This document shows positions 354-39,743 of a DNA stretch of 64,000 bases, piece by piece. Both the position numbers and the translations under genes were made by a program. The stretch comes from a virus (taxonomy: Duplodnaviria > Caudoviricetes): IMG/VR virus record IMGVR_UViG_3300032327_000792. One strand, 5' to 3'. How positions within the stretch are numbered: position 1 is the first letter of the stretch; the number at the start of each line of letters is the position of its first letter. The notes under the pieces are model-generated. The model saw nothing but the letters and a program-made list of their open reading frames with translations. It did not search any database and had not been told where the DNA came from.

Positions 354-986
354 TTATTTTCCAGCCTTTGCTAGGGCTGCTCCTTTGTTGAAACTGGGCG
401 ACCATGGACTCATTCCATCTACTCCGCCACGTGCTCTTGACCAGTTGTATCCGGCTCTGTGTCCAGAACAATCCTTGGTACATTCACTGCCCAAAAAACT
501 CAACTCGTCCAACTGATCCTTGAGAAAGGTATCAGCAAATGCCTTGCATAACTCTCGAATCTTGGTGTTGCGTGTATATTGTGTGTGAAACTGTTTGCCT
601 TCAAATGTCTGAGCAGGATCTTTATAACCGCAATAAACTTTGTGTATACCGTGCTGTTCAATCAGATCCTGACAACTTTTGCCTTCACGTTCGGCCATGA
701 ACTCGTTGCAAGGACTCAGTGTGGTTATCACAATACTGCCCTCTGGTACGGGTCCAAACCTGGCAGTGTAGTTGTCAATTGCTGCACGTTCGGCATGTGT
801 TCGACGACCGTCTTGCGCAGGACGATTGATACCCACTACACAGTTGTTGTTGGGATCCAACACTGCAGCGCCAACCATGCCCAAGTTTTGATTTCCGTAC
901 TGTCCTTGAATCACCAGTTCACACAGTTTTGTCAAGATTGAATCTAACTTATCATGATTGTGAATTTGGAAGTCGGAGATCCTCAT
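354..986 (-). CDS. Zn-dependent cytidine/adenosine deaminase-family protein with C-terminal CTKDCSGH module
   Basis: HAE (THAERAAI) and PCxx...C (SPCNE...CQDLI) deaminase motifs. Confidence 0.8.
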   Translation of the reverse strand: MRISDFQIHNHDKLDSILTKLCELVIQGQYGNQNLGMVGAAVLDPNNNCVVGINRPAQDGRRTHAERAAIDNYTARFGPVPEGSIVITTLSPCNEFMAEREGKSCQDLIEQHGIHKVYCGYKDPAQTFEGKQFHTQYTRNTKIRELCKAFADTFLKDQLDELSFLGSECTKDCSGHRAGYNWSRARGGVDGMSPWSPSFNKGAALAKAGK

Positions 987-1345
987 TTTTGTTCACGTAC
1001 CTTGGTAGCAACATTCTTTGCCTTGCCCCTACGTTCAGGATTGGGATCTTGTCTACGTTTCTTGGCAGCACTGGCGGCACGACCTTTTTTGCCCAGAGCC
1101 TGTGCTTTTGATTGTGGCAAACATTTGGGTTTGCCTTCTTTGCTGGATCCTCTGGCACAGTCGCCACGAATCTTGCCATCAGGGCCAAAGCGTACCCACT
1201 TTTCTTTGAACCACTTGCGCAGATCTTCTTCTAGTTCCTCGTTGGTATTTTTCACACAGTTAGGATATCGTTTTCCAAACATGGTCTTCATACCCTCTTT
1301 GTGATAACCTTTCCAGCAGGCCTCAAGGATCTCGCGATATCTCAT
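983..1345 (-). CDS. Basic phage protein (CWKGY...PNCV module plus DLRKWFKEKW module; DUF5872-like)
   Basis: ORF with ATGA overlaps on both sides; conserved-looking basic modules; MRYREILE leader. Confidence 0.65.
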   Translation of the reverse strand: MRYREILEACWKGYHKEGMKTMFGKRYPNCVKNTNEELEEDLRKWFKEKWVRFGPDGKIRGDCARGSSKEGKPKCLPQSKAQALGKKGRAASAAKKRRQDPNPERRGKAKNVATKVREQK

Positions 1346-2943
1346 TTTTTTGCTTTGTTGCCCCAGTTGGCAGCACCTTTTTTACGACACTGAACCAAGG
1401 CACCTGATGCATAGGCTGACGGCCAAACTTTGTAGCGACTTTTTACTTTGTGATAGCAGGCATCTTGTTCTTCGCGTAATTTATCATCTAGATCCTGATA
1501 CCCATATCCACGTCCGGGAATTTTTATAGGGCTTGAACTTGCAACACTGGCTTTGTCGTTGTCACCATAGAGATCATCTTCAAGATTTTCAATACGGTTG
1601 CTGACTGTGCGTTGAAAACTTCTCAAATTAGGAACGCCTTTGAATTGAAAGCGATCCAGCTCTTGGTTGCGTTTGCTGATGGTCGCAGTTCTGGTAGTAG
1701 GATTGTATTCAACCACAAAACTCTGCATCACCATTTTGGCTGGAATTTCTTGTGTTTCTTTTACAGGAGCCTTTGTAGAACCATATTGTGATTTCATCAA
1801 CTCTTCACTTAATTCATCTTCAAATGGCAAATACCAGAACCAGTTTTGAAAACCGCCTGGATTGGTATCATAGTCCATGTGAGCACGATTTCTGGCGCCG
1901 GTCATCATGCGTTTGAGTTCTAATTCAGCACCATGCTCGATAGCAATGGCTTCCAAGGCATCATACAGTTGACCAGCAAGATAACTGTCACGATTGCGTT
2001 CAATTTTAGGTGCCAGTTCTTGATATTTTTCAGCCAACTCAGTGTATAGATCTTTGACAGCACCTTCTGCTACTGGTCGATTCAATAATTTTTCCAAACG
2101 ACTGATAGCACCTGGTACGTCTGTGCGACCTTGTTTGGCCGACTCTCGACGGCGAGCTTCAATTTCATTGTGTTTCTTTTCACGCTGTGCTGATGCTTTG
2201 TTCCAACGTTCTCGAGCTGTGTCTTGCTCATACATGCCCAAGCGTTGCAGACGACCTTGGTTGTCTAACGTGTAGCCCACATCAAACAACTGTTTAATTT
2301 TTTTCTGAGCCAATTTTTCATTGCCGGCGCGGCGAGCATCTTCGATTTCACCAGCAATAATTCTGGCATTACGGTCATTTTGATTTTCTTCGTGAAACAA
2401 GTGTGTGTCTGGTGTTATAGAGAGTCGTTCTTTTTGTTGAGTCCACGCTCGATTCTTCTTGGCCCATTCTGTTCGTGTCATACCATAGGCATCTTGAAAC
2501 TGTTTGTCTGTCATGGCATTGCGGCCGCGGCTGCGTAAAAAGTCTTGATATTCAATATCAATGTCCTTCATGCGACCTTCTTTGATTCTGATATCTTCAA
2601 AAGGAACATCGTCCATGTTATCTTTGCTGAACATGTCTAATTGATAGCCCACTGGTCCCTTATGAGTTCCATATGCACGGTTCATGTTCTTCTGTGTTTG
2701 AGCAGCACGACGTTGAACCTGTGTGTAAGGTGTGTGAGGCTTGCTGACTATTTGATAACCACTGCGTTTTAATTCTGAATAAGCACGGTCAAACCCTGTG
2801 CCACTGGTATTCCACTGTGGTAGATAATAACCACGATTGTCTTTTTTCAATCTATAGTGTTGCACTGTTTGCGGATCGGCACCAACCACATAGTGTTTGG
2901 TCAACAACACAAACTGGTCTTCAAATAAATCATTCAGTATCAT
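1342..2943 (-). CDS. Multi-module hypothetical protein (putative head internal protein), C-terminal ACYHKVKSRYKVWPSAYASGALV module
   Basis: 533-aa ORF, MILNDLFE leader, Glu-delimited modules. Confidence 0.65.
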   Translation of the reverse strand: MILNDLFEDQFVLLTKHYVVGADPQTVQHYRLKKDNRGYYLPQWNTSGTGFDRAYSELKRSGYQIVSKPHTPYTQVQRRAAQTQKNMNRAYGTHKGPVGYQLDMFSKDNMDDVPFEDIRIKEGRMKDIDIEYQDFLRSRGRNAMTDKQFQDAYGMTRTEWAKKNRAWTQQKERLSITPDTHLFHEENQNDRNARIIAGEIEDARRAGNEKLAQKKIKQLFDVGYTLDNQGRLQRLGMYEQDTARERWNKASAQREKKHNEIEARRRESAKQGRTDVPGAISRLEKLLNRPVAEGAVKDLYTELAEKYQELAPKIERNRDSYLAGQLYDALEAIAIEHGAELELKRMMTGARNRAHMDYDTNPGGFQNWFWYLPFEDELSEELMKSQYGSTKAPVKETQEIPAKMVMQSFVVEYNPTTRTATISKRNQELDRFQFKGVPNLRSFQRTVSNRIENLEDDLYGDNDKASVASSSPIKIPGRGYGYQDLDDKLREEQDACYHKVKSRYKVWPSAYASGALVQCRKKGAANWGNKAKK

Positions 2944-5852: not shown

Positions 5853-5854
5853 AA

Positions 5855-6565
5855 TTACGCTTCTTCAATATAGTCTTGTGACTGGTTGTTCTTTTTTTGT
5901 CTTGCACGGAACATCTCAATGGCCATGGCAGCTTCGTCAATGTTTTTGAATCTGGACTTCATGGTGCGATTGCCGTGACGTATTTCAAATCCTGTGCGTT
6001 CATTGCCGTGTATTTCAAACATAGCGCCATTTTCCAACATCATGGATTTGACACAGGCTGATTCAGCATAGGTAGGATTTTGCATTAGGGGCGTTGGGTC
6101 CTGAATCACCGGATCTTCTTCTGTGGGGTCTTCTGCAATTTCTTTTGCCTTGGCCACAAGATCCCGGTTGTTTTTGTCTTTTTTGCCAATGCCTCGATCC
6201 ACTGGCTTTTGACCTAGGTCACGATCTATTTTCTTTTCCAATGTCTCTTCAACACTTTCTAAATAATCTATCAAACTCTTTTTGACTTTGTCTAGAAGTT
6301 TTTCTTCTTCGACTTGAGCTTCTTCAACAACTTCTTTGTCCGCCTCTTCATCATGTTCAACACTGTCGCCTACCATGTAGCCGCTCATGGGGTTCTTGGC
6401 GTTGGGATTGCCGCCCAGTATCTTCTGTGTTTTTGGTTTGAACAGTGCCGGCAACTGCTTGACACTTTTTTGGTCCGCATTCAATCCGTGCGTGACATCC
6501 ACAGGAGTGATACGTCCTTCCAACTTGGCCAAACGTTCAATGATATCGCGAATGTCATTGCTCAT
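5855..6565 (-). CDS. Hypothetical protein (acidic/basic, putative virion-associated)
   Basis: 236-aa ORF tightly packed in the operon. Confidence 0.6.
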   Translation of the reverse strand: MSNDIRDIIERLAKLEGRITPVDVTHGLNADQKSVKQLPALFKPKTQKILGGNPNAKNPMSGYMVGDSVEHDEEADKEVVEEAQVEEEKLLDKVKKSLIDYLESVEETLEKKIDRDLGQKPVDRGIGKKDKNNRDLVAKAKEIAEDPTEEDPVIQDPTPLMQNPTYAESACVKSMMLENGAMFEIHGNERTGFEIRHGNRTMKSRFKNIDEAAMAIEMFRARQKKNNQSQDYIEEA

Positions 6566-6566
6566 A

Positions 6567-7007
6567 TTATGCTCTTGCGTCCTTTAGATAGCTGCTGAGT
6601 TGCCAATAATATTTGCCGTGTGCAGACTGACGTTCGGCCATGAAGTTGGCGATGTCCTCACGTTTTTCGGACTGTGCAACAGCAAACACTTGCATGACCA
6701 AATCTTTCATGGTCTGTGTGTCTGCCAACAATTCTTCCAACATAAGTCTGGCACGTGGAACTTTGGTCTGTGGTGGTATGATTGATAGTTCTTGAAAACG
6801 CTCAAAACTTCCAGGAGCATATTCTTCCAAGGTACGGATATATTCAGCTATGGCATCTGTTGCACCGTAGGCATCTTGATAGATTTCAGCAAAGAATTCG
6901 TGCAACTGTCCAAAATCTGGCCCTTCCACGTTCCAATGAAACATGTGTGCCTTTAAATAATAAGCAAAATTGCTGGCCAATAACTGTTTTAATAAATCAC
7001 TTAGCAT
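6567..7007 (-). CDS. dps: Dps / ferritin-like DNA starvation protein
   Basis: YYLKAHMFHWNVEGPDFGQLHEFF and DAIAEYIR ferroxidase motifs; the likely start is MLSDLL at 7007. Confidence 0.9.
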   Translation of the reverse strand: MLSDLLKQLLASNFAYYLKAHMFHWNVEGPDFGQLHEFFAEIYQDAYGATDAIAEYIRTLEEYAPGSFERFQELSIIPPQTKVPRARLMLEELLADTQTMKDLVMQVFAVAQSEKREDIANFMAERQSAHGKYYWQLSSYLKDARA

Positions 7008-7200
7008 TCTTTTTTCCCTGTTTCTTTTTGTATTCTTTAGGCGTGTTTGGTGTTGGATCTGAGCCTGTTGAGTATTTACCTGTAAAGAAGTTTCCACCAT
7101 TTCTTGTGATCATGCCGCCCATGGGTGCAGCCACTGTGGCTATGGCACCGGATCCAGTGGATCCCGCCGAAGCATTTTCCATTATTTCACGAATTTTCAT
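6997..7200 (-). CDS. Small hypothetical protein (ENASAGSTGSGAIA motif)
   Basis: 67-aa ORF, MKIREIME leader, basic tail. Confidence 0.65.
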   Translation of the reverse strand: MKIREIMENASAGSTGSGAIATVAAPMGGMITRNGGNFFTGKYSTGSDPTPNTPKEYKKKQGKKNAK

Positions 7201-7483
7201 TGTAGATCCTCAGTAAATTTTCGCCTTTGATATTGGCATCGCCCAACTCTACACGCATGTTCGCCACTGTAAGTTGTGCTAAATGTGGGGGCACAAGTTC
7301 GTGACGGATTTGGTATTGGCCAGGTTCGGCATTGATCTGGATCAGTTCTTCAAGATATTCATTGTTCCAAATCCAAGTGCGTTCTGTGAACAACTCGTCA
7401 TTGACATACACACGATAAACCGGGGGCAATCCCTCCCAATCGCAATGCACATCACACAGCACTCGCACGAATTTCTTGTCCAT
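7187..7483 (-). CDS. Hypothetical protein
   Basis: 98-aa ORF directly after a TAAATA motif (7488-7493). Confidence 0.65.
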   Translation of the reverse strand: MDKKFVRVLCDVHCDWEGLPPVYRVYVNDELFTERTWIWNNEYLEELIQINAEPGQYQIRHELVPPHLAQLTVANMRVELGDANIKGENLLRIYNENS

Positions 7484-7514
7484 GCTGTATTTAGCGGTTT
7501 TGAATTTTAAGAGT

Positions 7515-8480
7515 TTAAAGACTAAATGGATCTATGATCACAATTTGGCCGTCTTTTCTACGACCCAAGTTTTCAATTGAACGCAAATCCAACGGTGCTA
7601 GTCCGCCAACGGCATCTTCGAGATCCTGTGTGGCCATGACCAATCCGTCTACTTGTTCTTCTGACAATCCCAGCGGTCTTTTTTTGTTTTGGTAGAATGC
7701 TGCCAGGGCTTGTTCACCACGAGGTAGGGCACTCATTAGATCTTCAATGTATTCCAGTACCTGGTCTTCGCCTGACACAGGGCCAAGATATTCCATTTCG
7801 TACACAAAGTAGGTTTCGCCATCCACCTCAAAATCACCAGCGTTGTAAATTCTTGGATAGTGTGGATTGCGTTGATTACGCAGAAAAAAGCCCACATAAG
7901 TTTTTACTATGTCTTCACGTTCGTCTTCGCCAATGCCCACAACTTTGAGCACTGTGCCACGTGGGCTTAGAAATGCTATTTGATCACGGCCTTCACCAAG
8001 ATAACCATAGCCACGATCAACAAAGTAATCTTGTATGCGCTGACTAACTGACAATTCATCTTCGTCGTTGATTTCGTTGATTGGTTGCCAAGTCATTGCT
8101 TTGGCACCTTTGGTGATAGGGTTGAATCCGTGGCGCTGGTATAGTTTGGTCAATGATTTTTGACTTATTTTTCCTTTGGCCCAAGGGTACAATGTTAATG
8201 TAATGCCCGCCGACTGTGCTTGACGTTGCAGTTCTTTGATGGCACGACTGCCTATGCCCTTGCGTTGCTCAGGACCGGCCATTAGCCAATCTATTTCCAC
8301 TGTGTTAGAATCAATGCCGGGTTTGAGTTTGAATGCAGCAAACTGTTGATCTTGACCTGTGCCCCAAACCATGACTCGATCAGCTTGACCATAGGGCCAT
8401 TCTGGGTACTGACTGTAGACCTGATCTATCCAGGCCTGTGCTGTACCTGTGTTTTCAACTAAGAATTCACAAGCTCGCAT
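7515..8480 (-). CDS. GNAT-like acetyltransferase fused to a kinase-like (APH/PKL-type) domain
   Basis: N-half has IDWLMAGPEQRKGIGSRAI (GNAT motif A). C-half has YLGEGRD...VLKV, YEMEYL, DLRSIENLG and IVIIDP, resembling protein-kinase-like subdomains. Confidence 0.6.
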   Translation of the reverse strand: MRACEFLVENTGTAQAWIDQVYSQYPEWPYGQADRVMVWGTGQDQQFAAFKLKPGIDSNTVEIDWLMAGPEQRKGIGSRAIKELQRQAQSAGITLTLYPWAKGKISQKSLTKLYQRHGFNPITKGAKAMTWQPINEINDEDELSVSQRIQDYFVDRGYGYLGEGRDQIAFLSPRGTVLKVVGIGEDEREDIVKTYVGFFLRNQRNPHYPRIYNAGDFEVDGETYFVYEMEYLGPVSGEDQVLEYIEDLMSALPRGEQALAAFYQNKKRPLGLSEEQVDGLVMATQDLEDAVGGLAPLDLRSIENLGRRKDGQIVIIDPFSL

Positions 8481-8708
8481 TTATTCAAAGTCCACTGACT
8501 CTTGTACTAACTGTTTTGTTTTTAATTCTTTTACTGATCCCACATGGTGGTCTTGTATTTGATACTGTTGTTTGAGTATGGTTCTTGCAATTTGTGCGTT
8601 GGGTGCCCAGACCTGTGCGTCAACATAGCCCACATAGTTGGGTTGATTGACACGAACTTTGGCTGTCCAAAGTCGGGCGGATTCTGTTACGAACTCACGT
8701 AATCTCAT
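8481..8708 (-). CDS. Small hypothetical protein
   Basis: 75-aa ORF, MRLREFVTE leader. Confidence 0.65.
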   Translation of the reverse strand: MRLREFVTESARLWTAKVRVNQPNYVGYVDAQVWAPNAQIARTILKQQYQIQDHHVGSVKELKTKQLVQESVDFE

Positions 8709-8714
8709 AATATA

Positions 8715-9533
8715 TTACTTATTCTTCTTTTTTCCAGACTTCATATTGGCACACCAATGATACATCTTGGCTTTTTCTCCCGATGCATTTTTAGCCTTGC
8801 GACGTAGATCAGTTACTGATCCTGCACAACTGGCACCTGCACGTTTCACACGTCCTGGACGGCTTTTGCCTTTAACTTTACCGTCAGCAAAGTTTTCGTT
8901 GGTGGTCTTGCCCTGTATTAGATTTCTCACTCGATCAATCACATGATTCACACTGCTCAAGGTGGCATGTGAAAAACCCTTCATCACTGTTCGATCCTGT
9001 TGAACCATCGCATACTGATATATCTTGGAGCTGGTACCGCGTTGTATGCTGAAAATCTTGTTGTCTCTGTTGAAGAAGTGTGCAGAGTTGGCACCCAATT
9101 CCTGATCCCAACCTTGACTGTCAAAAAACACACGATATATGTTGAGTATGTCATTCCAACTTAGATTGTAGTCGTTGCCTCCCCACGGGTCATGTTCAGG
9201 TGGCACAAATTCATTGAGAGTTTCTTGATCTTCCCAAACTCTTTGATCACCACGGTGTTTGTCCCAAAATCCCCGGCCTGCATCGGTTTGATCCCAACTT
9301 CTAACAATGGTATAGCCATTGTCTTTTAGGTAATCGTACATATTGGCCGCAATGCCCTGACCGTGATAACGTTCATCAACCCATACAGTTTGTGGATCCA
9401 ATCGACCCTCTTGGTCAAAGAAAAATTCTGCATGGCCTAAATTTTTACCACCGGCAGTAGCTTTGACAGCTACACCGTCTGCATTCCGACTGATCAACAG
9501 TTTGTATTCTAATAGGAATTCTCGAGCTCTCAT
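8715..9533 (-). CDS. GNAT-like acetyltransferase plus extra modules, C-terminal basic ENFADGK...HWCANMKSG module
   Basis: VWVDERYHGQGIAANMY (GNAT motif A) and QTDAGRGFW. Confidence 0.7.
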   Translation of the reverse strand: MRAREFLLEYKLLISRNADGVAVKATAGGKNLGHAEFFFDQEGRLDPQTVWVDERYHGQGIAANMYDYLKDNGYTIVRSWDQTDAGRGFWDKHRGDQRVWEDQETLNEFVPPEHDPWGGNDYNLSWNDILNIYRVFFDSQGWDQELGANSAHFFNRDNKIFSIQRGTSSKIYQYAMVQQDRTVMKGFSHATLSSVNHVIDRVRNLIQGKTTNENFADGKVKGKSRPGRVKRAGASCAGSVTDLRRKAKNASGEKAKMYHWCANMKSGKKKNK

Positions 9534-10618
9534 CGGGCACTCGCTACAAAACGTAAGTCTCTACTGATAGATCCCAACTCTTTTTTCATTTTGGGGCCAG
9601 CACGTTTGACGTCTGCACGTGACACATGAGTGTCGGGTTCGTCCTGGGTTGTTACATTAACAGGCTCATCGGTGCGTGTGTCAAAGCCGTGTATGTTCAA
9701 CTTACGACCATAACGCTGTTCTAGTTCTTGCCACACACGATAGCCACCTTCACTTTGCTTGTTGTCGCTGATCAGTGTGAGTCCCTGGTCCAGTATCAAA
9801 AAAGCATACAAATCTGCAGCACGGTATTGATTTCGAGGACCTGAATAAACACCCTGAATGACAAAGCTGTTGGGGTTTGATCGATAAGGACGACCTGTGG
9901 TGCCCAATTGACTGGTGCGTGTGTTGGTGTTAAACACATAGTATGTGACTGTGCCACGATTGTTCCATGACCATAGTTCGAACCCGTCACCAAGATCAGC
10001 AACTAAATTGCCTAAGTATTCAGACTCTTTGCCTGAGGGAATAGGTTTGCCATCATTGGGCATGAGATCCAAATGTTCTCTTTTGCTTTTGGATTGTGTG
10101 TTGACCATGGTCACTTCCATTATACCAGTGGCTCTACGCAATCTCAAATCATAGTCTCGATCGCTTTCGTATTTGGTAATAAAATCGTCGTAATAGCGTT
10201 TGGCGTCAGCAGGAGTGTCAGCTTCAAAACTGTGAACTATTTTATCAGGTGTTTCGGCATGATAGATTTCATAGCTTCGGTTGAGTCTGTCACGTACACG
10301 AGCCATGCGTTCTTGTCTAGCGTCAACCTGACGGCCAGCACGATCAAGATAGCGTTCCAACTTATCTCTACTGATTTCATTTACTTTATCGTTCATTGGG
10401 CGTTTAATGCGTACCAATCTGTTGGTACTGGGTTCTATGGTATAGCCCAGCATGATCAACTGTTTCATAATTTGTCTGGCCTGATCCATATTGGGCACAT
10501 GACCGTCACTGTTGTCCAGAGCATCCATCATGAGATTGTACAAAATCATAGCTTTTTGCGATGTGCCAGACTCAAATTCGTTAGCACGAATCTCAGTTAC
10601 GAACTCTTGAGCTCTCAT
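9530..10618 (-). CDS. Multi-module protein with C-terminal GNAT-like domain
   Basis: Likely start is MRAQEFVTE at 10618 (ATGA overlap with the upstream stop); C-terminal LISDNKQSEGGYRVWQEL is typical of phage GNAT-like domains. Confidence 0.6.
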   Translation of the reverse strand: MRAQEFVTEIRANEFESGTSQKAMILYNLMMDALDNSDGHVPNMDQARQIMKQLIMLGYTIEPSTNRLVRIKRPMNDKVNEISRDKLERYLDRAGRQVDARQERMARVRDRLNRSYEIYHAETPDKIVHSFEADTPADAKRYYDDFITKYESDRDYDLRLRRATGIMEVTMVNTQSKSKREHLDLMPNDGKPIPSGKESEYLGNLVADLGDGFELWSWNNRGTVTYYVFNTNTRTSQLGTTGRPYRSNPNSFVIQGVYSGPRNQYRAADLYAFLILDQGLTLISDNKQSEGGYRVWQELEQRYGRKLNIHGFDTRTDEPVNVTTQDEPDTHVSRADVKRAGPKMKKELGSISRDLRFVASAR

Positions 10619-13600
10619 TTTTTCTTCCGGTCCAACATGTTGTAAGGATGTCTTTTGTCGTTCATGTATTCCACAGCTAACAGCATCACAGAATTCTTGG
10701 CTGACTGTGGCACACTGGCCCAACTGCTGTAGCCATTCTTTTGGGCAGCCATGTTCATGAATTTTCTGGCTCGTTCAGCATCACTTTCTGTGCTTTCGCC
10801 TAATTCGGGTCTTGGATCTACGCTACGCAAATATATGTCTGCCGCAGGATTCTGTTGCTCCAGGTTAGTCTGCACTACATTGGCTTGGTTATAACTGGCA
10901 TTGGTCATTGAATGAATAACCCGTCCGGTTATGCGATCCACAAATTCCCAATTGCGGCGAACTTCTGTGGCATCTTGAGGTCGGTCAAAGTTTTGTGCTA
11001 TATCTGGCTCAATATCATTCACTGCTTGCGCTACTCGCCAGCCATAGTTTTCTGTGTCTGCAGGCATGCCTTGATTGCGTAGCCAATTGCTAAACTTGTC
11101 ACCAGCATCCGCCGCATCATCTGCTCGGTACCGTAGTATCACACGATTGTTTCTGCGATCCACAATTTCGTACTGATCTGTGGCCTGAACACGTTGTTGT
11201 AGGCGTTGGCTGTCTACAGCGTTGTCCACTGCTTGTTTAACACCGGTGGCTCGTTGCACTGTGAAGTTGCCTGTGTCCAAATTCTTGTCCTGCAAGTATG
11301 TGATCGCAAAGTCCACAGCCTGAGCCTGACTGGATGCCTGGAATGTGTAGAATGGTAGGCCACTGTGTTTGTTCAATACCACATAGTCTTTGGGTTGAGC
11401 AATTTGTTTGGCCAATTTGGCTCTGCGACTGAGTTTGGGTTCGGGTTCAGTTTTTCCTCCGCCGTAGGGCTCAATGTAGAATGGTATGACATCAGTGTAC
11501 TTTTCACGAGCCTGATCAGCGGCTTCGCCACGTGTGGCAGCATCAATGATTTCCAATGTTTCGTTGTTGTCTTTGCGCATAACACGCCATTGACCTGTGT
11601 TGGTACCCACATCACGCAGTTCGTAGGCCTGCTTGAAATCCATCATGGAACTGGCCGGACTCACACGAGCTTTGGCACGTTCCAGTGCGTCCAGTTCTGT
11701 GTAGTTTGAAAACTCTAGGCCTTCAACTGGTTTGTTGGTGGATCTGTTGTAGAGCCTCCACGAACTCTTGCCTCCTGTGCCATCAGGAACTTCCTTGTTG
11801 ATTACTTTTTCGGCCCATTGTTTTTTGAGTTGTTCAGCAGTGAGTTCACCAGCACTGAACTTGCTGAACAGTTCCAGGTCCCGGTTGCCTTCAGGAGCAA
11901 TTAGCTTGTATAGTTTTTTGTAGTATTCAGGACGCTCTAAGTCAGGACGACCAGCTAGATACATGGCATAGGCAAAGCGACGCATGGTTGATGCCAACAC
12001 GTCTGCTTCACCCTGATCGCCTATGCTTAGGTAATCGCCGCCAGGTGATCTAAATTCAATATAGCCAGGCTTGATATGTGCTGATGTATATTTGGAACCA
12101 CCCACGCCTTGCTGTACATATTTCTGTGCTAACTCAAGCAAATTGCTCTTCATCAACTCTACAGCAGAGGCAATCTTAGGACTGCCACTGGCCACGTTTT
12201 GTTTGATCTTTTTCATGGCCGAAGCAGTGTAGGTATTGGCAGCACGTCCAAACTTGTCCAGCACATACTCGTCACCCATGAACAAGATCAATTTCAAGTA
12301 GTCAACATCACCACCTTTGAATGGTATTGATATGCCCATGTGCAAACCTGTTGAATCGTTGGTGTAAGCATAACCGTCGGAATTGGCCCATGCAATCACT
12401 TTTTCCATCTGTTCAATGGCCTGATTCAATGGCAGTGGTGGACTCACAAGTTCCAATCCAGCATCATCTCGATTATCTGGGCTCAAACTTGAGTCTGGCT
12501 CCAGCACATATTCGTTAGGCACACGACGGGCGGAGTGATAACCTGATCCCACAACCACACGTTTGCCCAGTACTGTTTCAAGTTCGGCAGCAATTTGAGA
12601 CCAGTCACGAGATCCTTCGTTTCTGCTGCTGGTGTTGGTGTAGTAAGGCCAATCCAAATTGTACTCGTTCATGACATCGCTCATCCAGCGTAGACCTATG
12701 TCTGAAAAGAAGCCAGAATCATCCGCATCGTAGCCATTGCGGAATTCATCCAGTGCAGCGTCCCAGTTTGCACCTTGTTTGCGAACTTCATCTTCAACTA
12801 GAGCATCCAATAGATCTTCTGCTGCGCTCTGGGCATCCATGTATTTTTGATACAGGGGATTTTCTTTGGCGTATTCTTGTTGATCGCTGTATTTGGTAAA
12901 GCGAGGAGCCCGTTCGCCAGCTTGAATAATCTCATTCATTTCATCATCAGTTAAATCCAACAACTCCAACTGTTTTTGTATTTCAGTGTCTTTGTCCCAA
13001 TCGCCTTCGTCAACAAGCACCTTACGAATCAAGTCTTCGGCCTCTTGTTCAAAGTCACGCATGATTTGTTCATCACGCCACTCAAAGTAGGCTTCATCCA
13101 GTCTGTCTCTCAATCGATCGGCTTGACGTTCACTCATGCCATATCCACTGTAGTCGTTGGAGAAAAATTCAACAACTTGTTCAATACTGTAGGCACGTTC
13201 GTCCATGTCCATGTCGGCTTCCATGTCATCATCGCTGTCGTCATCTTCACTGCTGGTGTCACGGAATATCAATTCTGCTTCAAAGCCGGCCAAAATACCT
13301 TCGGCTTCGGGTGAATCAGCAAACTTACGCAGAGCTGAAGGACTCATCTTGACTTCGTCTAGCTGTACACTTTCAAACAAGTCAGGATCAAAATCATCAG
13401 CTGAAATAAAGTGAGTGGTGCCATCTCTGTGCTGCAGTTGAACAGCATCATCTTCGGATTCTACTTGACGTATGCTCCAGCCCAGGCTGTTTAACACAGA
13501 TTCAATTTGCGGTTGACGGTCTGTGGCATTCCACCAACGATTGGCCAGCACAAAAATAGGATCTGGAACATCATCGTTGCGGTCACGCCCAGGGCCGGGT

Positions 13601-15861
13601 GCAAATTCATTCACATTGTATGTGGGGTCAGTTTTGATCTTTGGACCGGGACGTTTTACAGGATCCACAGGATCAATGTCAGTGACATCCAGCCCTGTGG
13701 CTTTTATGTCACCAATGAACTTGTGTTCTGTATCTTCGTCACCAAAGCTGATGATGGTACTAGGAGGACCCTGTCCAAAATCGTGTTGCCCTAGACCTTT
13801 CATGTTTGGAATATGTTGACCCAGTTTGTACCAGTCGTACACATCTGAAACATCCACACGTAGCGTGCCAGCTGGCATTGTGGGTTTGAATTCTGGACCA
13901 GGCGGTCGTTGGTTGCCTAGAGCATCTAGTTTAGAGCTCACACGGCCAGTTTCTTTGAACTCGCGTAGGGCATTCTTAAGACCTTTGATCAGTAACTCAG
14001 GATGTCCTTGACTGTCTGTGTTCAAACTCAACTTGTTGGCTTCTTTGCCCACTGCTCCGGGCTGAACATCCACACTCAACGCATTGCTGAACTGTGGTAG
14101 CTTTGCTTGTTTACGTGTGGGAATATAACCCGAAGATTCTTTTACATCATCTTTGTTTTGCATCTGTTTCTGTAGCTGATACAAACGACTTTGATTCTTT
14201 GCGTTAGCTGATCCAGGACCTTGACCCTGTGCTCTTAAAAAATTCTGTAGTTCTTGATCCAGTTCGGCCTTGACACCGGCCCGGTTCATGTTTTTCACTG
14301 TTTGTGCTGTGCGTGCCGCTGTTTGTGCATCTCGAACAGTGCCAGCAGTTGTAGTAGCACAGCCAGGAGTACCTGCTATGCATGCGGCTGCTGCTATTGC
14401 ACCTAACTTTTCTTTTACACCCTCTTGTGTGGGCTTTCGGCGAGGTTTGAAAGGTACCAGCATGTTGGCCGGCAATCTCACAGTTTCACCTGTGTCAGCG
14501 TCTGTGATGGTGACCATGTGACCAACCTGTTGAATCACAGTTCCGCCCTTGGGCAACATTTTGAGACCATAGTTATCAATTACACCGTCGCCGCGTTGGA
14601 ACATCTTGCTTGAGCCCAAACTGTAAGTGGCTTCCATGGTGTGCTCAGTATCAAACAATTCAGGGTGCAGTTGTCCGTATTCACGCATCAGCACACCAGC
14701 TTGAGCATTGGCTTCGTTTTCGTATTCACTGCCTGTGACACCTGCATCGTCAGGTATGTCAGCAACTTCACCTTGACGCTGATGTGTGAGCTCGTGTGCT
14801 ACTGTGCGCAATATGTCCATGACATGGCGATTGGCCAAGCTCACAATCAATTCATTGGTGTCATGATTGTAGCTGCCAAATGTTCGGTTGCGTTTGCTCC
14901 ACACAGGATCACGTTTGAAACGTATCCGGGGCGTGTTTTCAATACCTAATTTTTCAACACAAAAGTTCACAAAGTCTGTGACAGTGTCTTCTGTGGTGGG
15001 TGCAGATTCCTGTATGCTTTCTCCACCACCACCATCGCCTCCTCCACCGTCGGCAGGAGCTTCACCGGAACCGGCAAATCCAAATCCGGGATACCAATAT
15101 CCACCAAAGCCGTATTTTACTTTTTTCTTTTTGGCTTTCTTTTTGCGGCGTTCATTCAAACTCAACTCTGCATCTTTGGCTGCTGCTCTGGCACTGTATA
15201 ATTTTTTAATTGCGCCTTGATTGCGCAACATCTTGAAGGCCAGGTTTTCAGCACCCAGTTCACCGTGTGCATCAAGTCCAGCTTGACGCATGTTTCGGAT
15301 TTTGTTTGCCAACTCTGCAATGGCGTCGCCATCCTGAGAAGCCACAGCAGATTCAATTCTGTGTCCAATGTCTTCATACTTTGACTTCACTGCTTCGTCG
15401 TTGACAGTGGCACGTTGCTTGAGTGGAATTTTTACCCAGTCATTGTTCAGCACACTGTATATGCCCTGGCTCACAGGTTGCTTGCGGGCATCTTCTACAT
15501 AGAGCTCTACATCATAGCCGCCAATGGTGATGTTGTGTTGATCATTGTACTGATACTTTTTGGCATCAAACAGTTCGCGATATACATCATCGGCATCTGC
15601 CTGAGGAATATCTACCACTAGATGTAGATCAATGTCTGAATAGGGTGTGTAAGTGTATCCGGCATTGCTACCTGACACAGTAATGTCTTTTACTTCTATG
15701 TCACTGAGTCCTAGAAATTCTTTAAAATCCTCGGCAATTGCCAACAGGCGCTCACGCACCTCGGGTTTCATTTTTTGCCCGGACCAAACCACTGGATTTA
15801 AAGTGTTGTTGAATTTAACAGCATCTGCTAAATTATAGGAATCTAATTCTGTGATGTTCAT
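10615..15861 (-). CDS. 1748-aa polyvalent protein: pol-beta-type nucleotidyltransferase + HExxH metallopeptidase + amidoligase (COOH-NH2 ligase type 2) + repeats
   Basis: SGSNAGY...SDIDLH...VELYVE; RTVAHELTHQRQ; EPDSSL...GLELVSPP...TNDSTGLHMGI...YIEFRSPG. Confidence 0.75.
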   Translation of the reverse strand: MNITELDSYNLADAVKFNNTLNPVVWSGQKMKPEVRERLLAIAEDFKEFLGLSDIEVKDITVSGSNAGYTYTPYSDIDLHLVVDIPQADADDVYRELFDAKKYQYNDQHNITIGGYDVELYVEDARKQPVSQGIYSVLNNDWVKIPLKQRATVNDEAVKSKYEDIGHRIESAVASQDGDAIAELANKIRNMRQAGLDAHGELGAENLAFKMLRNQGAIKKLYSARAAAKDAELSLNERRKKKAKKKKVKYGFGGYWYPGFGFAGSGEAPADGGGGDGGGGESIQESAPTTEDTVTDFVNFCVEKLGIENTPRIRFKRDPVWSKRNRTFGSYNHDTNELIVSLANRHVMDILRTVAHELTHQRQGEVADIPDDAGVTGSEYENEANAQAGVLMREYGQLHPELFDTEHTMEATYSLGSSKMFQRGDGVIDNYGLKMLPKGGTVIQQVGHMVTITDADTGETVRLPANMLVPFKPRRKPTQEGVKEKLGAIAAAACIAGTPGCATTTAGTVRDAQTAARTAQTVKNMNRAGVKAELDQELQNFLRAQGQGPGSANAKNQSRLYQLQKQMQNKDDVKESSGYIPTRKQAKLPQFSNALSVDVQPGAVGKEANKLSLNTDSQGHPELLIKGLKNALREFKETGRVSSKLDALGNQRPPGPEFKPTMPAGTLRVDVSDVYDWYKLGQHIPNMKGLGQHDFGQGPPSTIISFGDEDTEHKFIGDIKATGLDVTDIDPVDPVKRPGPKIKTDPTYNVNEFAPGPGRDRNDDVPDPIFVLANRWWNATDRQPQIESVLNSLGWSIRQVESEDDAVQLQHRDGTTHFISADDFDPDLFESVQLDEVKMSPSALRKFADSPEAEGILAGFEAELIFRDTSSEDDDSDDDMEADMDMDERAYSIEQVVEFFSNDYSGYGMSERQADRLRDRLDEAYFEWRDEQIMRDFEQEAEDLIRKVLVDEGDWDKDTEIQKQLELLDLTDDEMNEIIQAGERAPRFTKYSDQQEYAKENPLYQKYMDAQSAAEDLLDALVEDEVRKQGANWDAALDEFRNGYDADDSGFFSDIGLRWMSDVMNEYNLDWPYYTNTSSRNEGSRDWSQIAAELETVLGKRVVVGSGYHSARRVPNEYVLEPDSSLSPDNRDDAGLELVSPPLPLNQAIEQMEKVIAWANSDGYAYTNDSTGLHMGISIPFKGGDVDYLKLILFMGDEYVLDKFGRAANTYTASAMKKIKQNVASGSPKIASAVELMKSNLLELAQKYVQQGVGGSKYTSAHIKPGYIEFRSPGGDYLSIGDQGEADVLASTMRRFAYAMYLAGRPDLERPEYYKKLYKLIAPEGNRDLELFSKFSAGELTAEQLKKQWAEKVINKEVPDGTGGKSSWRLYNRSTNKPVEGLEFSNYTELDALERAKARVSPASSMMDFKQAYELRDVGTNTGQWRVMRKDNNETLEIIDAATRGEAADQAREKYTDVIPFYIEPYGGGKTEPEPKLSRRAKLAKQIAQPKDYVVLNKHSGLPFYTFQASSQAQAVDFAITYLQDKNLDTGNFTVQRATGVKQAVDNAVDSQRLQQRVQATDQYEIVDRRNNRVILRYRADDAADAGDKFSNWLRNQGMPADTENYGWRVAQAVNDIEPDIAQNFDRPQDATEVRRNWEFVDRITGRVIHSMTNASYNQANVVQTNLEQQNPAADIYLRSVDPRPELGESTESDAERARKFMNMAAQKNGYSSWASVPQSAKNSVMLLAVEYMNDKRHPYNMLDRKKK

Positions 15862-15903
15862 AGTGTATTTATTGGATCTTTTGTTATAACATCTTAAAGA
15901 AAA

Positions 15904-15922
15904 AGCCGCTGATTAGGCGGCT
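15904..15922 (-). terminator. Rho-independent terminator
   Basis: AGCCGC/GCGGCT stem followed on the minus strand by TTTTCTTT, just after the stop of 15945..16823. Confidence 0.7.
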
Positions 15923-15944
15923 CTTTTGATCAATCAAAAAAGAA

Positions 15945-16823
15945 TTACTTCTTTTTCTTTTTGCTGGCCATTACTTTGCCTGTGACCGGCGCCGGGGGTT
16001 CAGCAGCTGTCACGGGTTCGGTCATTGTTGGCACAATCTGTGTAGTCTGTGCAGCCGATTGATTGGCCAATGCCATTGCATGTAGATCTCTATAGGCCTG
16101 CTCTTGATTTTCATTGCTGAACACATAGGTTCCTGAGTGACGTAACAACACACGCTTGTCTACCCATACTTCTCCACCTAGATCACGCCAGTTTTCGCAA
16201 AATGCCCAGTCTTCGGAGTAGTAGCGATTTTCACGCACACCTGTGTCAAAGTAGGTCTTCATGTGAGCGTCTAGCTCCTGAGGCAAGCCAATGTCGTTCT
16301 TGAATGGAATTACGTGTGGATGCTTGTTTAGCTTTTCAAACACATGACGCTTGATCAGTAGGAATCCTGTGCCTGTTTTTGATACTTCTTGCAGTGCGCC
16401 ATCTTCCTTTGCACCGTCAAATCCGTTGACACACCATTTGATTGGCAAGGATTTCATTGGGTACAATCCACCAATTACGTCTTTGTCTGCATTCAACATC
16501 ACCAACAAATGCCATGGCTCCCAGCCAATGTCAGCATCAATAAACATCAAGTGTGTGGATTCGGGGTTGGTCAAAAACTTGGCTGTGAGTGTGTTTCTGG
16601 CACGAGTAATTAGAGACTCATTGGTCATGGTTTCCATGGTCCAATCAATGCCCAACTGACGTGCAGTATTGGACCATTTGATAAAACTCATAAATGTTGA
16701 CTCAGTTAAATTACCGCCATAGCATGGCATACAGATATGTACTTTGGTAGTTTTTAAAAAATCAACATTGACTTGTATGGTGTTTTGTGGTGGTAATGGA
16801 GATTGTGTGATTGCGTCTGACAT
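15945..16823 (-). CDS. Glycosyltransferase (GT-A fold, phage type)
   Basis: ICMPCYGG, ESLITRARN, HLMFIDADIGW (DxD), GTGFLLIKR, SEDWAFC. Confidence 0.8.
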   Translation of the reverse strand: MSDAITQSPLPPQNTIQVNVDFLKTTKVHICMPCYGGNLTESTFMSFIKWSNTARQLGIDWTMETMTNESLITRARNTLTAKFLTNPESTHLMFIDADIGWEPWHLLVMLNADKDVIGGLYPMKSLPIKWCVNGFDGAKEDGALQEVSKTGTGFLLIKRHVFEKLNKHPHVIPFKNDIGLPQELDAHMKTYFDTGVRENRYYSEDWAFCENWRDLGGEVWVDKRVLLRHSGTYVFSNENQEQAYRDLHAMALANQSAAQTTQIVPTMTEPVTAAEPPAPVTGKVMASKKKKK

Positions 16824-16876
16824 CGTTTCCTCTTTGTTAAAATGTGTGTATATTTACAAGAGTACAGCAGGTGGGG

Positions 16877-17677
16877 CTATTTTTTACGACCGGCGCAGTG
16901 TGCTCGTTGACTGAAACCTTTGGGGTTTGAACAATTGATTGAGCTCTTGTATTTCTTACTCCATTTTTCTTCCAAATAGTCGTCAGATTCTTTTTCTTTT
17001 AATTGTGCTATGCGTTGTCGTAATTGGGTTATTTTTTCAGCAATTCTAGCACGGCTTTCGCTGACTATTTCCACTGGACGACCAGTGCCTAATTTAAGAT
17101 CAAATATATCTCGGATTCCTGGGTCCACATCACCATAAAGATCAGCAATGATTTGATCACGGTCTGAATCATTTCCGGCAATATATTGTTTTCTTATCTG
17201 ACTGGCTGAATTGGCATCAGCACCACGTACTCGGAAGTTTACAGTGGGTGTCACTGCCACATAGGCGTGTTGTGTCATATTCTGCAGATCCTTGCTGTCT
17301 AGGGGCAGGGGTTGCATGTAACTGGGTGTGCCGTCTTTTTTGGTGCCAAATGTAAATCTAGCATCTTCACCGGTCATGTCTTTTTCACTCACAGCAAATA
17401 TCAACACAGTATTTTCAGGATCGTCTATTTCGGATCGGATTTCTTGTGCTTGATAAGGATTACGTACCTGCGCAATTTGCCCGGGACTGATGCCCAATTT
17501 GGTCATCATTGCCATTTTGTCTGCAAAAGAAAATGGGCTGGTTTCTGGATCTTGTTTGTCGCTGCTCACAACAAATACATTGCGATCGCCGTAACGCTTG
17601 GTCAGATAATCATAGCTGGCTTTGTGCCCACGATGAAAAGGATGAAAACGGCCGGGATATATCACTACTGTACGCAT
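16877..17677 (-). CDS. HxGH nucleotidyltransferase (cytidylyltransferase-like) with C-terminal KWSKKYK...CSNPKGFSQRAHC module
   Basis: YPGRFHPFHRGH motif; SASQIRK motif. Confidence 0.8.
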   Translation of the reverse strand: MRTVVIYPGRFHPFHRGHKASYDYLTKRYGDRNVFVVSSDKQDPETSPFSFADKMAMMTKLGISPGQIAQVRNPYQAQEIRSEIDDPENTVLIFAVSEKDMTGEDARFTFGTKKDGTPSYMQPLPLDSKDLQNMTQHAYVAVTPTVNFRVRGADANSASQIRKQYIAGNDSDRDQIIADLYGDVDPGIRDIFDLKLGTGRPVEIVSESRARIAEKITQLRQRIAQLKEKESDDYLEEKWSKKYKSSINCSNPKGFSQRAHCAGRKK

Positions 17678-17690
17678 CTAGTATTTAGCG

Positions 17691-18696: not shown

Positions 18697-19404
18697 TTAT
18701 TTAGCCACCAATTGTGAGGTCTTGCGAATTAATCCCGGTCGGATCAATGCCAGCATGGTCAACCAAGTGCGGTTGTTGTAGTCCACAAAGAAATAATCCT
18801 GTGTGCGTACAAAAGGCAGTGATAACCATGCTTTTAATGCAGGGCTAATTCTAATGTCAGGCTGATTGTTAAAGAAATTCAATAGTTGATCTTTTTCTCC
18901 AGCAGTCAGCTTGACATTGCGGAAATAGCTTCTGTATTCATGTCGAGGATTGAGCAATGCAATGGTATTTTTGGCACGCACAACCACAGCCTCGGTGTAC
19001 TTTGCCTCACGCACAAAAGGCAAACGTCCAATGCGTTCCAGCAATACAGAATTGTTGCTGTAAATCCAACATTGATTCACCGAAATTACTATTTTGTAGG
19101 GTTCAGTTACCTGTTGTAAAAAGTCAACAAACGCATACAATTCGTCACGAGTTTGATCAGTAATAGGCTGATGTTGGCGCACAAAGTTATTTTGTGGCCA
19201 GCGAGTACGCACACGTTCACGCCACTGTTTTCGGTGGTTCAGTATATCAGTGATTTTTTCAATGTCCAAGGTGTTACGCAACGCAGTGGCTTCATTCAGC
19301 CGCAAGCGTATGCAGTATTGCCAGTGATCGTAAAACAATTGATCACTGTCAATGGACTTAAAGTTTGGGCTTTGTTGGGTCAAGGACAATGTATCCATCC
19401 GCAT
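18697..19404 (-). CDS. Hypothetical protein
   Basis: 235-aa ORF overlapping the clpA 3' end. Confidence 0.6.
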   Translation of the reverse strand: MRMDTLSLTQQSPNFKSIDSDQLFYDHWQYCIRLRLNEATALRNTLDIEKITDILNHRKQWRERVRTRWPQNNFVRQHQPITDQTRDELYAFVDFLQQVTEPYKIVISVNQCWIYSNNSVLLERIGRLPFVREAKYTEAVVVRAKNTIALLNPRHEYRSYFRNVKLTAGEKDQLLNFFNNQPDIRISPALKAWLSLPFVRTQDYFFVDYNNRTWLTMLALIRPGLIRKTSQLVAK

Positions 19405-21701: not shown

Positions 21702-22487
21702 TTATTGGGTGTGTTTGATTCGAATCAGATCCAGCAATTCTGAGTCAATCTTCGGGGGCAAACTGCCTTGTATCCGGATCAGTATATCGCCTTGCTGACC
21801 TGATCTATGGCGTAGTCCACGTCCTCGTAGTCGCAGCGTGGTTCCGGGCTGACACATGGGCGGAATAGTGAAAACTATTTCGGTGCCCAACACGTCTCTA
21901 ATTCTGGCATTGGTGCCCAAGATCAAATCCCACACCGTGGCAGTGTGTTCTGCTGTCAAATTAAGACCTGACCTAAACCAACGCGGATCAGGATGAATTC
22001 TAAATGAAACAATTAAATCCATACCACCCGGCGCCAGTCCTGGGTACTGTACAGAATCGCCATCATCAATGCCTAGAGGAATTTCAATGTCTACTGCCTG
22101 TGTGCCTGTTTGGGTGCCCACGGATACAGTTCTACGACCGCCCTGTGCTACATCACGCAACTGTATCCATAGGCTCATTCTGGCCTGCTGTGGCCTGCGT
22201 TGTCCTTGTCCAAAGCGTGCACCAAATATGTCAAATATTGTGTCAAAGTCAAAGCCCTGCGGTCCACCGTGTTGTCCAAACGAGCCAAAGTTAGGCTGTG
22301 GATTGTCGTACTGCGCTCGTGCTTGTGGATCGCTCAGTGTGCGGTATGCTTCCTCTATTTCTTGAAACTTCTTTACATCTCCACCCTTGTCCGGATGATG
22401 TTGGCTGGCCAGCTTTCTATAAGCACGTTTGATTTCGTCGGCATCAGCAGAGGTTTTTACACCTAGAGTTTCGTAATGGTTTTTCAT
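21702..22487 (-). CDS. dnaJ: DnaJ-class co-chaperone (no zinc finger; CbpA-like)
   Basis: J-domain with HPD motif, G/F-rich linker, DnaJ C-terminal domain (LRLRGRGL...GDILI). Confidence 0.9.
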   Translation of the reverse strand: MKNHYETLGVKTSADADEIKRAYRKLASQHHPDKGGDVKKFQEIEEAYRTLSDPQARAQYDNPQPNFGSFGQHGGPQGFDFDTIFDIFGARFGQGQRRPQQARMSLWIQLRDVAQGGRRTVSVGTQTGTQAVDIEIPLGIDDGDSVQYPGLAPGGMDLIVSFRIHPDPRWFRSGLNLTAEHTATVWDLILGTNARIRDVLGTEIVFTIPPMCQPGTTLRLRGRGLRHRSGQQGDILIRIQGSLPPKIDSELLDLIRIKHTQ

Positions 22488-29048: not shown

Positions 29049-29077
29049 ATTATAGCAGATCAGAAGTTTCTGGTCAA
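29049..29077 (-). promoter_or_regulatory. Sigma70-type promoter
   Basis: TTGACC-17-TATAAT upstream of the HAD gene. Confidence 0.8.
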
Positions 29078-29985: not shown

Positions 29986-30272
29986 TTGACTTTGTTAATT
30001 TCTTCCCCATTGATATTCAACGGATGTCCATTTTCTTCAAACAGGCGTTCAATGGTATGAGCATAGTGTTGGTAATAATAAGCAACAATTCGGTCCCAAT
30101 CCTTGGGCACTTGTGCATCGCCCATGCTGGCCAATATCACTTGTTGATCCTTAAAGTCCAAGATCACATTGGCTGTTTGTAGATCACGGCGTTTAAGATT
30201 TTTACTCACAGCCATGACTTCGTCAATTTGGCCAGTAGGTTTACGATAGTAAGTTAAAATTAAATATCTCAT
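29982..30272 (-). CDS. Hypothetical protein
   Basis: 96-aa ORF with ATGA overlaps. Confidence 0.65.
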   Translation of the reverse strand: MRYLILTYYRKPTGQIDEVMAVSKNLKRRDLQTANVILDFKDQQVILASMGDAQVPKDWDRIVAYYYQHYAHTIERLFEENGHPLNINGEEINKVK

Positions 30273-39714: not shown

Positions 39715-39743
39715 ATTATAGCAAAATAGGAGTTTTTGGTCAA
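39715..39743 (-). promoter_or_regulatory. Sigma70-type promoter
   Basis: TTGACC-17-TATAAT. Confidence 0.8.

Follow-up and report, generated by a model that had tools for sequence, protein, structure and literature searches.

The 64,000-nucleotide stretch of DNA analysed here, IMG/VR virus record IMGVR_UViG_3300032327_000792 (referred to as the window, i.e., the stretch at its full length), contains a block of genes between positions 354 and 15861 whose otherwise different products share short N-terminal leader peptides. We regard this block, with a probability of about 0.7, as a late-transcribed and fast-shuffling cassette region for cargo of the head interior, which is packed in the form of cleavable precursors. 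The earlier proposal that the leaders are targeting and cleavage signals like the capsid-targeting sequence (CTS) of phage T4 is favoured by their likeness to the T4 signals, their restriction to late, non-metabolic genes, the presence of a prohead protease in relatives, their enrichment among virion proteins of the related phage PA5oct, and the occurrence of homologs of the cargo in T4-type head modules. By analogy, the proteins would be targeted to the head, cleaved, ejected and active on the host.

The motif M-x3-[DE]-[FILMV]-x1-2-E is found at 8 of the 90 N-termini of the window and at none of the others, with 0.47 occurrences expected from internal positions (binomial p 3e-8). All eight genes lie on the minus strand between 983 and 10618, within 11 consecutive genes (permutation p < 1e-5), and all eight leaders end in [LIV]-x-E. 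Two flavours of 8-10 residues can be distinguished, MR-x-x-E-F-[LV]-x-E and M-I-x-x-D-L-F-E. The codons used for Arg, Glu, Leu, and Val differ synonymously between the leaders (CGA/AGA, GAA/GAG, TTA/CTA), and the DNA upstream of them is unrelated from gene to gene; therefore, the conserved object is the peptide rather than a DNA or RNA element, and selection works on it at the protein level. A position-specific scoring matrix (PSSM), built solely from metagenome homologs of the gene at 9530-10618, places eight block genes among the top nine N-termini of the window.

The preliminary description of this DNA had quoted ten leader-like N-termini on consecutive, otherwise unrelated open reading frames (ORFs) in a block reaching to position 17677. 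All ten N-termini exist on the minus strand, and the proteins are indeed unrelated, since BLASTP among them detects no mutual similarity except for one 61-residue stretch. The genes are clustered but not strictly consecutive, being interrupted by 5855-6565, a Dps-like gene at 6567-7007, and 7187-7483, and the leaders do not extend to 17677, because the two genes at the top of that span (15945-16823 and 16877-17677) carry none. As to the two least typical N-termini, MRISDF is leader-like with a PSSM score of 5.8 but is devoid of the closing Glu and represents a weaker ninth case, while MNITEL scores only 1.6, is doubtful as a leader and could in part already be a piece of the nucleotidyltransferase domain.

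The N-termini of T4 proteins, as translated from NC_000866, are MKTYQEFIAE for ipII and ipIII, MKTFKEF...ITE for ipI, MELITELFDE for Alt, MAKINELLRE for gp24, and MLKEQLIAE for gp22. The resemblance to the T4 CTS noted before is borne out by the E-F-[ILV]-x-E core that the window form MRA-x-EF-[LV]-x-E shares with IPII and IPIII, and the second flavour, MI-x-x-DLFE, is similar to the Alt leader, as is the metagenome form MFI-x-ELF-L-D-E. In T4, the CTS brings proteins to the scaffolding core, and gp21 cleaves it off (PMC5694885, PMC8442874, PMC3012670; Mullaney & Black 1996, as cited in these three papers); the peptide is sufficient for targeting (PMC5694885, PMC8442874).

A view on the homologs of the protein encoded at 9530-10618 shows that nearly all of the 119 non-self matches listed start with MRAxEF[IV]xE or MFIxELF, continue with DUF6934, DUF6886, a cytidine deaminase, a GNAT domain, a nucleotidyltransferase or nothing, and end in a common C-terminal GNAT-like module of about 200 amino acids, so that at least six different module types stand behind the leader. 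Likewise, 11 related IMG/VR loci contain 3-9 tagged genes each in a syntenic block, with very different bodies. The common module, for which 141 representative homologs are available, is assigned to no family by Pfam; its AlphaFold2 model, with a predicted local distance difference test score (pLDDT) of 79.7, yields Foldseek matches that are all GNAT acetyltransferases, weak but uniform (E ~3e-3, template modelling score ~0.35). Distant stand-alone homologs of this module start with MKTFKQFITE, MKTYHQFITE or MRTFKEYLAE, i.e., with near-canonical T4 tags. Two distant homologs were placed on their contigs and about 20 kb around them were viewed: one immediately follows Gp23 in a cluster that comprises Portal_T4, Peptidase_S77, T4_CASP, and Gp23 genes and in which a second MKTFKQFITE gene stands just before the protease, and the other lies between gp15 and terminase genes, beside three more small genes of the MKTFK type. 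The same cargo module thus bears the T4-type tag in T4-like phages and the MRAxEF tag in the window, and this provides the strongest argument for an equivalence of the two tags.

Almost all genes of the window are oriented on the minus strand, and the clamp loader (30269-31222) shares 57% identity with that of the jumbo Pseudomonas phage PA5oct, with Atu_ph07 and RsoM2USA as next best matches. We propose as source of the window a jumbo phage, uncultured and about 310 kb in size, which is related to PA5oct and more distantly to T4. An IMG/VR genome of 315,778 bp (IMGVR_UViG_3300032116_000004, 91% complete, 402 genes; G001 in the following) served as closest complete relative; it is syntenic with the whole window in reversed orientation, with protein identities of 40-80%. 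In G001, 7 of the 8 highest PSSM scores fall into the orthologous block, and a scan of all its start candidates added only three tagged genes, located beside tail and head genes, two of which carry canonical T4-type 10-mers (Table 1). No leader is present on replication or metabolic genes, either in the window or genome-wide in G001, and the leaders are thus restricted to late, non-metabolic genes rather than being equally frequent in early or metabolic ones. As a separate observation, the N-terminus encoded at 7680-8285 of G001 is similar to that of gp202 of PA5oct (MKSFRDYYDASKRKYSFVIKIATD), which was identified in virions by mass spectrometry; homology was judged by eye only.

With the prohead protease of G001 as query, more than 8000 near-identical proteins were retrieved; the repertoire of cargo modules is common to this very abundant, uncultured group. 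Among cultured phages, neither megablast of positions 7000-17000 nor tblastn of the 8715-9533 product and of the GNAT-like module gave any match, and the 1748-amino acid protein of the block matched through its N-terminal nucleotidyltransferase only. Maribacter phage Molly_1 (L039), a 125-kb phage of another family, encodes a stand-alone homolog of the nucleotidyltransferase module (1435-2232), whose leader-like start, MNLKTLVE, lies about 22 residues before the start of the alignment.

Late transcription of the block would be in keeping with T4-like promoter motifs. All four TAAATA motifs named previously are present (Table 1), and in G001 the same motif recurs at the same two spacings before the genes of the portal, a gp67-like protein, sheath, tube, and fibre and before the genes of the orthologous block; its distance to the starts of block genes and G001 structural genes is 10-13 or 22-34 nt. 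Note that the count of TAAATAC in the window (9, compared to 7.8 in shuffled sequence) is not over-represented, and only strand and position of the motif are informative. As a motif match, the pattern is consistent with T4-type late promoters. All nine TAAATAC sites of the window are located on the minus (coding) strand, mostly just before start codons; genes with the motif 10-13 nt upstream show no visible Shine-Dalgarno sequence, and those with the motif 22-34 nt upstream have one.

The head module of G001 follows the T4 order, comprising a portal (phrog_213), a 72-amino acid protein at the gp67 position starting with MNLFEFF, a 287-amino acid protein, the prohead protease, a protein at the scaffold position, and the major head protein (phrog_138). 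The protease belongs to Peptidase_S77 (PF03420, 95.5 bits; phrog_207, E 5e-56), and PA5oct shows the same order of head genes, including a gene at the protease position with an N-terminus resembling that of the G001 enzyme.

An indirect link to virions is provided by the cultured relative PA5oct (PMC7318152); the virion set was defined as the 93 proteins marked ESI-MS/MS (electrospray ionization tandem mass spectrometry) in GenBank MK797984. The leader motif, used as a regular expression, occurs in 9 of these 93 and in 2 of the 374 other proteins (p 1.4e-5), and the independent metagenome PSSM at a score of >=2 selects 9/93 virion versus 4/374 other proteins (p 1.2e-4). A Mann-Whitney test on all N-terminal scores of PA5oct is not significant (p 0.61), the enrichment being confined to the high-scoring tail.

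The end of the leader also recurs between the modules of the cargo proteins. The residue before the GNAT-like module (P1) is always Glu. Of 56 distinct upstream contexts, which by our own grouping represent about 28 unrelated types of upstream modules, 54 have V, I or L at P3; P2, P4, and P5 vary freely. The protein encoded at 9530-10618 contains three [LIV]xE sites in all, after E9, E81, and E168, and these are exactly its three module boundaries, which are known from homologs that have the module in question immediately after a leader. In its full-length AlphaFold2 model, pLDDT falls below 50 beyond the leader region at residues 76-79, adjacent to E81, and at residues 166-178, which include E168; the N-terminal region with E9 is poorly modelled as well (1-4, 9-11, 13-18). 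The junction of the 7515-8480 product (Table 1; boundaries are marked by a slash) has its counterpart in the stand-alone MRSQEFISE/VNFPDELSVS of G001, and the same C-terminal module also occurs alone behind a leader in locus L001, while the second module of the 983-1345 product follows directly behind the leader in loci L001-L003 (MRASEFISE/DLRKWFKEKWVRF). An all-against-all mapping shows that at least six module families obey the junction rule. Internal junctions retain P3 and P1 only, without Met or other leader residues, and hence are more than mere remnants of gene starts that became fused. The position of the motif in flexible linkers suggests a polyprotein-like cargo, and in the simplest reading of these sequences the prohead protease would cut the precursors into separate modules. 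The previous notion of a portable leader that can be added to any gene is too simple, because the proteins are strings of shuffled modules with a cut-site motif at every junction checked.

The tagged genes and related features are listed in Table 1.

Table 1. Predicted cargo genes, late-promoter-like motifs, and related features (window coordinates unless G001 is indicated; a slash marks a module boundary; aa, amino acids).
Feature	Position	Strand	Remarks
Cytidine/dCMP-type deaminase, 210 aa	354-986	minus	leader-like start MRISDF; PF00383, E 2e-12
Two-module protein, 120 aa	983-1345	minus	leader MRYREILE, then EELEE/DLRKWFKEKW; 76% identity to G001 170396
Protein with Alt-like leader, 533 aa	1342-2943	minus	leader MILNDLFE; PSSM 9.8
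Protein with Alt-like leader, 970 aa	2940-5852	minus	leader MIVFDLFE; same leader on 829-aa ORF in L002
Protein with very basic tail, 67 aa	6997-7200	minus	leader MKIREIME; phrog_17311, E 6e-5
Two-module precursor, 321 aa	7515-8480	minus	leader MRACEFLVE, GNAT module (PF00583, E 1e-4), PINE/INDEDELSVS, weakly kinase-like module (phrog_15752, E 1e-4)
Small protein, 75 aa	8481-8708	minus	leader MRLREFVTE; PSSM 17.1
GNAT acetyltransferase, 272 aa	8715-9533	minus	leader MRAREFLLE; PF00583, E 3e-4; PSSM 17.0
Three-module cargo precursor, 362 aa	9530-10618	minus	leader MRAQEFVTE, module A, VNE81/I, module B (ISRDKLERYL...), IME168/V, GNAT-like C-module
Polyvalent protein, 1748 aa	10615-15861	minus	start MNITEL; nucleotidyltransferase phrog_36119, E 5e-44; HExxH at residue 356; amidoligase PF12224, E 5.8e-9
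Fe/Mn superoxide dismutase with N-terminal extension	38449-38991	minus	MREEINLIE/AS; PF02777 and PF00081
TAAATAC late-promoter-like motif, head of lower operon	7487-7493	minus	10 nt upstream of 7187-7483 ATG
TAAATAC late-promoter-like motif, upstream of 1748-aa gene and MRxxEF run	15865-15871	minus	10 nt upstream of 10615-15861 ATG
TAAATA motif	~16851-16856	minus	33 nt upstream of 15945-16823
TAAATA motif	17681-17687	minus	10 nt upstream of 16877-17677 ATG
Extra G001 tagged gene by tail module	7680-8285 (G001)		MKTFAEYLTE, canonical T4-type 10-mer
Extra G001 tagged gene by tail module	9936-10571 (G001)		MKTFKDYLAE, canonical T4-type 10-mer
Extra G001 tagged gene by tail module	11243-11647 (G001)		MRAREFVAE

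As for the predicted enzymes, the deaminase, amidoligase, and nucleotidyltransferase of the preliminary description were recovered, and two of its three GNAT-like domains are recognized by Pfam and the third by fold; the kinase-like assignment is weak, and the peptidase is indicated by the HExxH motif only. These identities should be taken as domain-level predictions, with the kinase-like, HExxH, and GNAT-like fold assignments being the weak ones. The true start of the 9530-10618 gene is an internal ATG within a TTG-initiated ORF (9530-10723). The 8715-9533 body sits behind other leaders in metagenome homologs P0007, P0009, and P0012, orthologs of 8481-8708 in relatives are conserved proteins of 60 amino acids starting with MRA[KR]ELTGH, and leaders like that of 1342-2943 open ORFs in loci L001-L003 (MILN[DE]LFES) and distant GNAT-module proteins (MIL[NQR]DLFE; P0250-P0254). 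Orthologs of the deaminase start with MRA[ST]DF[EQ]I, and P0092, P0114, and P0116 are fusions of deaminase modules with the GNAT-like module. In P0075, a homolog of the 1748-amino acid protein, MRARDFVKS replaces MNITELDSY ahead of the same nucleotidyltransferase domain; a PDB sequence search with the 1748-amino acid protein gave no match. The 6997-7200 product is the closest analogue in the block to a T4 internal protein, and its orthologs of 60-67 amino acids with MRAxEFIxE leaders occur in L001, L004, L005, and L007-L011. Its ORF overlaps an over-long call of the Dps-like gene. The latter (6567-7007, minus strand) encodes a Dps/ferritin-like protein without leader inside the cargo operon (PF00210, E 2e-22), and probably starts at MLSDLLKQL rather than at the longest-ORF start at 7100.

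A candidate for cargo encoded outside the block is the superoxide dismutase, whose N-terminal extension has [LI]-x-E as its last residues ahead of the fold, both in the window and in G001 and PA5oct, and whose PA5oct homolog, gp261, is flagged as virion protein by ESI-MS/MS. The start of another gene (62602-64000, plus strand, running past the end of the window), MRELINLINHLEE, is close to the extension MREEINLIE of this enzyme; its G001 ortholog starts with MRNLIDIIENLE, and Pfam assigns no family to its product.

Several points weigh against the interpretation of the block as a source of head-internal cargo. The 64-kb window contains no head genes, and the prohead protease of its own phage is predicted by analogy with relatives. 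The Dps-like gene, 5855-6565, 7187-7483, 15945-16823, and 16877-17677 belong to the same operons and carry no leader. With respect to PA5oct, one of the two motifs was shaped after the virion list had been seen, the leaders are a looser variant on proteins that are not homologs of the window cargo, the mass spectrometry list includes probable contaminants, and gp299-gp310, which occupy the same map position as the block, are virion proteins without leader. Finally, [LIV]-x-E is a short motif, and the conservation of P1 and P3 could partly be a property of the downstream modules.

The leader and junction motifs may alternatively serve as processing sites only, with targeting to the prohead mediated by another part of the proteins, or with the proteins destined for another compartment of the virion, such as tail, neck or baseplate. 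The minimal leaders of stand-alone GNAT-like proteins, which consist of five residues (MFLYE/L, MRIAE/L) and are short for a docking signal, would fit such a role, as would the position of some tagged G001 genes next to tail genes, and the PA5oct data are silent on location within the virion. We nevertheless consider this unlikely, because the conservation of the N-terminal MRAxEF/MFIxELF peptides goes far beyond what an [LIV]xE site on its own requires, which argues for an extra function of the N-terminal copy, unlike the internal junctions with their conserved P3 and P1. Moreover, the equivalent peptide of T4 suffices for targeting, as cited above.

Even less probable, in our view, is an address unrelated to the capsid, either a tag for Clp machinery of the phage itself or a membrane or secretion signal. 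Genes for such a machinery are present in the window, where a ClpA/ClpB-like double-AAA ATPase (19358-21634), a DnaJ-like protein (21702-22487), and a ClpP subunit (60890-61483) are encoded, the ClpA-like gene being syntenic in G001 and PA5oct, and Iyer et al. (2021, PMC7824862) suggest a possible role of phage Clp ATPases in the translocation of unfolded proteins or in the assembly of virions. The Clp variant, although conceivable, finds no support in the present tests. It is opposed by the presence of leader-class cargo homologs in T4-like head modules, with no Clp genes called in the ~20 kb around them. Further, no Clp degron is known to resemble the leader, and T4, which uses nearly the same peptide, is not known to have Clp genes. 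The acidic and amphipathic character of the leader is not that of a signal peptide. The shared N-termini might also be by-products of cassette exchange, i.e., recombination joints or duplication relics without any function in the protein. T-even phages do shuffle genes at conserved short sequences, and the region is hyperplastic, with relatives swapping modules exactly at these points; yet the synonymous codon differences and unrelated upstream DNA indicate conservation at the amino acid level, and neither the P3/P1-only conservation at junctions nor the enrichment in virions is predicted by recombination joints, leaving this explanation with hardly any credibility. A T4-type capsid-targeting and cleavage leader is preferred.

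Some further genes of the window may be mentioned. The ClpA/ClpB-like gene lies directly upstream of the cargo block on the minus strand, beside the same region as its counterparts in G001 and PA5oct, and the DnaJ-like and ClpP genes are likewise on the minus strand. Several fibre-like genes (38129-38392 and 35263-38124, minus strand; 53113-56145, plus strand) have an N-terminal module in common (MAQQIINVGTAPNDGLGDPIRT and MANQIIIDIGAVANDGTGDPLRT), which may represent a common attachment domain on interchangeable fibres. Two radical-SAM-like genes (29074-29985 and, on the minus strand, 59592-60893) and a ferredoxin gene (39740-40066) were also noted, the labels of the first and the last being based on N-terminal sequence motifs judged by eye only; 59592-60893 has a weak PHROG match (phrog_1802, E 5e-8).

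The cleavage motif of phiKZ- and SPN3US-type phages contains a small residue at P3 (S/A/G-x-E), a feature not shared by the window clade with its aliphatic P3 and its leaders of 5-10 residues. In addition, propeptides of that type exceed 100 residues (PMC5694885), and the window showed no genes for inner-body proteins or for a virion RNA polymerase. The two systems would have in common a jumbo head with many non-structural proteins that are cut after Glu, sometimes at multiple sites, by a T4-related protease (PMC5694885, PMC7411985, PMC10052503). Closer parallels exist to the T4 CTS system, including a leader core of E-F-[ILV]-x-E or E-L-F-x-E that ends in [LIV]-x-E, two flavours matching the internal protein and Alt leaders, diverse unrelated cargo, a Peptidase_S77 in the clade, and T4-like late motifs. 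The differences are that the window leader is mostly a 9-mer starting with MR instead of the T4 10-mer starting with MKTY, that enzymes and multi-module precursors make up most of the predicted cargo, with the 6997-7200 product as the only small basic protein like those of T4, and that cut-site motifs recur at internal junctions; also, the clade is a distant jumbo relative of T4 with a major head protein of about 400 amino acids. The internal proteins of T-even phages form a diverse defence set with the conserved CTS alone in common (PMC3012670), and their hypervariable loci resemble the block in being plastic, with only the leader conserved and the content varying between close relatives, whereas the window block is larger (~10-15 kb, 8-10 genes) and is shuffled by domains within genes.

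The 1748-amino acid protein and the multi-enzyme strings also correspond to the polyvalent proteins, multi-domain conflict proteins delivered with the DNA, as described by Iyer et al. (2017, PMC5512222; 2021, PMC7824862). The 10615-15861 product indeed unites several unrelated enzymatic or conflict domains on one phage polypeptide, and in the 7515-8480 product a GNAT is joined to a module that is weakly kinase-like. Unlike polyvalent proteins, those of the window have their domains split by protease-site motifs and a CTS-like tag in front, which suggests that they would be released as separate enzymes and would at the same time offer a route for loading. In the parts of PMC5512222 and PMC7824862 that were searched, no description of a loading route for polyvalent proteins was found. 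It is already known that T4 uses such a tag, that the internal proteins of T-even phages are diverse, and that head proteins of phiKZ/SPN3US undergo proteolysis. Short tags of the T4 type in PA5oct-like jumbo phages, or modular cargo delimited by cut sites, were not found described in the literature searched, including a 2026 review on jumbo phages and Iyer et al. (PMC7824862).

According to the mechanism we propose, a tagged gene would start with a leader that is the local version of the T4 CTS of IPII/IPIII or Alt, and this leader would, as in T4, direct the precursor to the prohead and its scaffolding core, where a prohead protease of the gp21 type (Peptidase_S77) would cut after the Glu of [LIV]-x-E. 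The same protease would probably dice multi-module precursors into separate enzymes within the head, at the [LIV]-x-E sites of the linkers, and the products (GNAT acetyltransferases, the deaminase, the small basic protein resembling internal proteins, and others) would exit together with the DNA, to become active at an early stage in the next host. A wider generalization, which we put forward tentatively and at somewhat less than even odds, is that T4-related jumbo phages use a two-part grammar, consisting of an N-terminal address and an [LIV]-x-E site in a flexible linker before every module. Any enzyme module could in this way be inserted into a precursor by recombination, loaded, and set free as a protein of its own by the prohead protease, which would generate combinatorial, cleavable cargo polyproteins across an abundant clade and reach T4-like phages via the GNAT-like module.

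If this is true, the proteins injected by a phage would become readable from sequence alone, and the head cargo of this group of jumbo phages, which is large and abundant in the environment, would be predictable from the N-terminal tag and the junction motif. This would provide a list of candidate enzymes for early takeover of the host or for anti-defence, including divergent GNATs, deaminases, nucleotidyltransferases, DUF6934, DUF6886, and superoxide dismutase. The capsid-targeting principle of T4, which is in use for loading foreign proteins into T4 heads, would extend to distant phages with larger capsids, and the arrangement of tag and junctions would suggest how polyvalent multi-enzyme proteins get loaded and are then separated.

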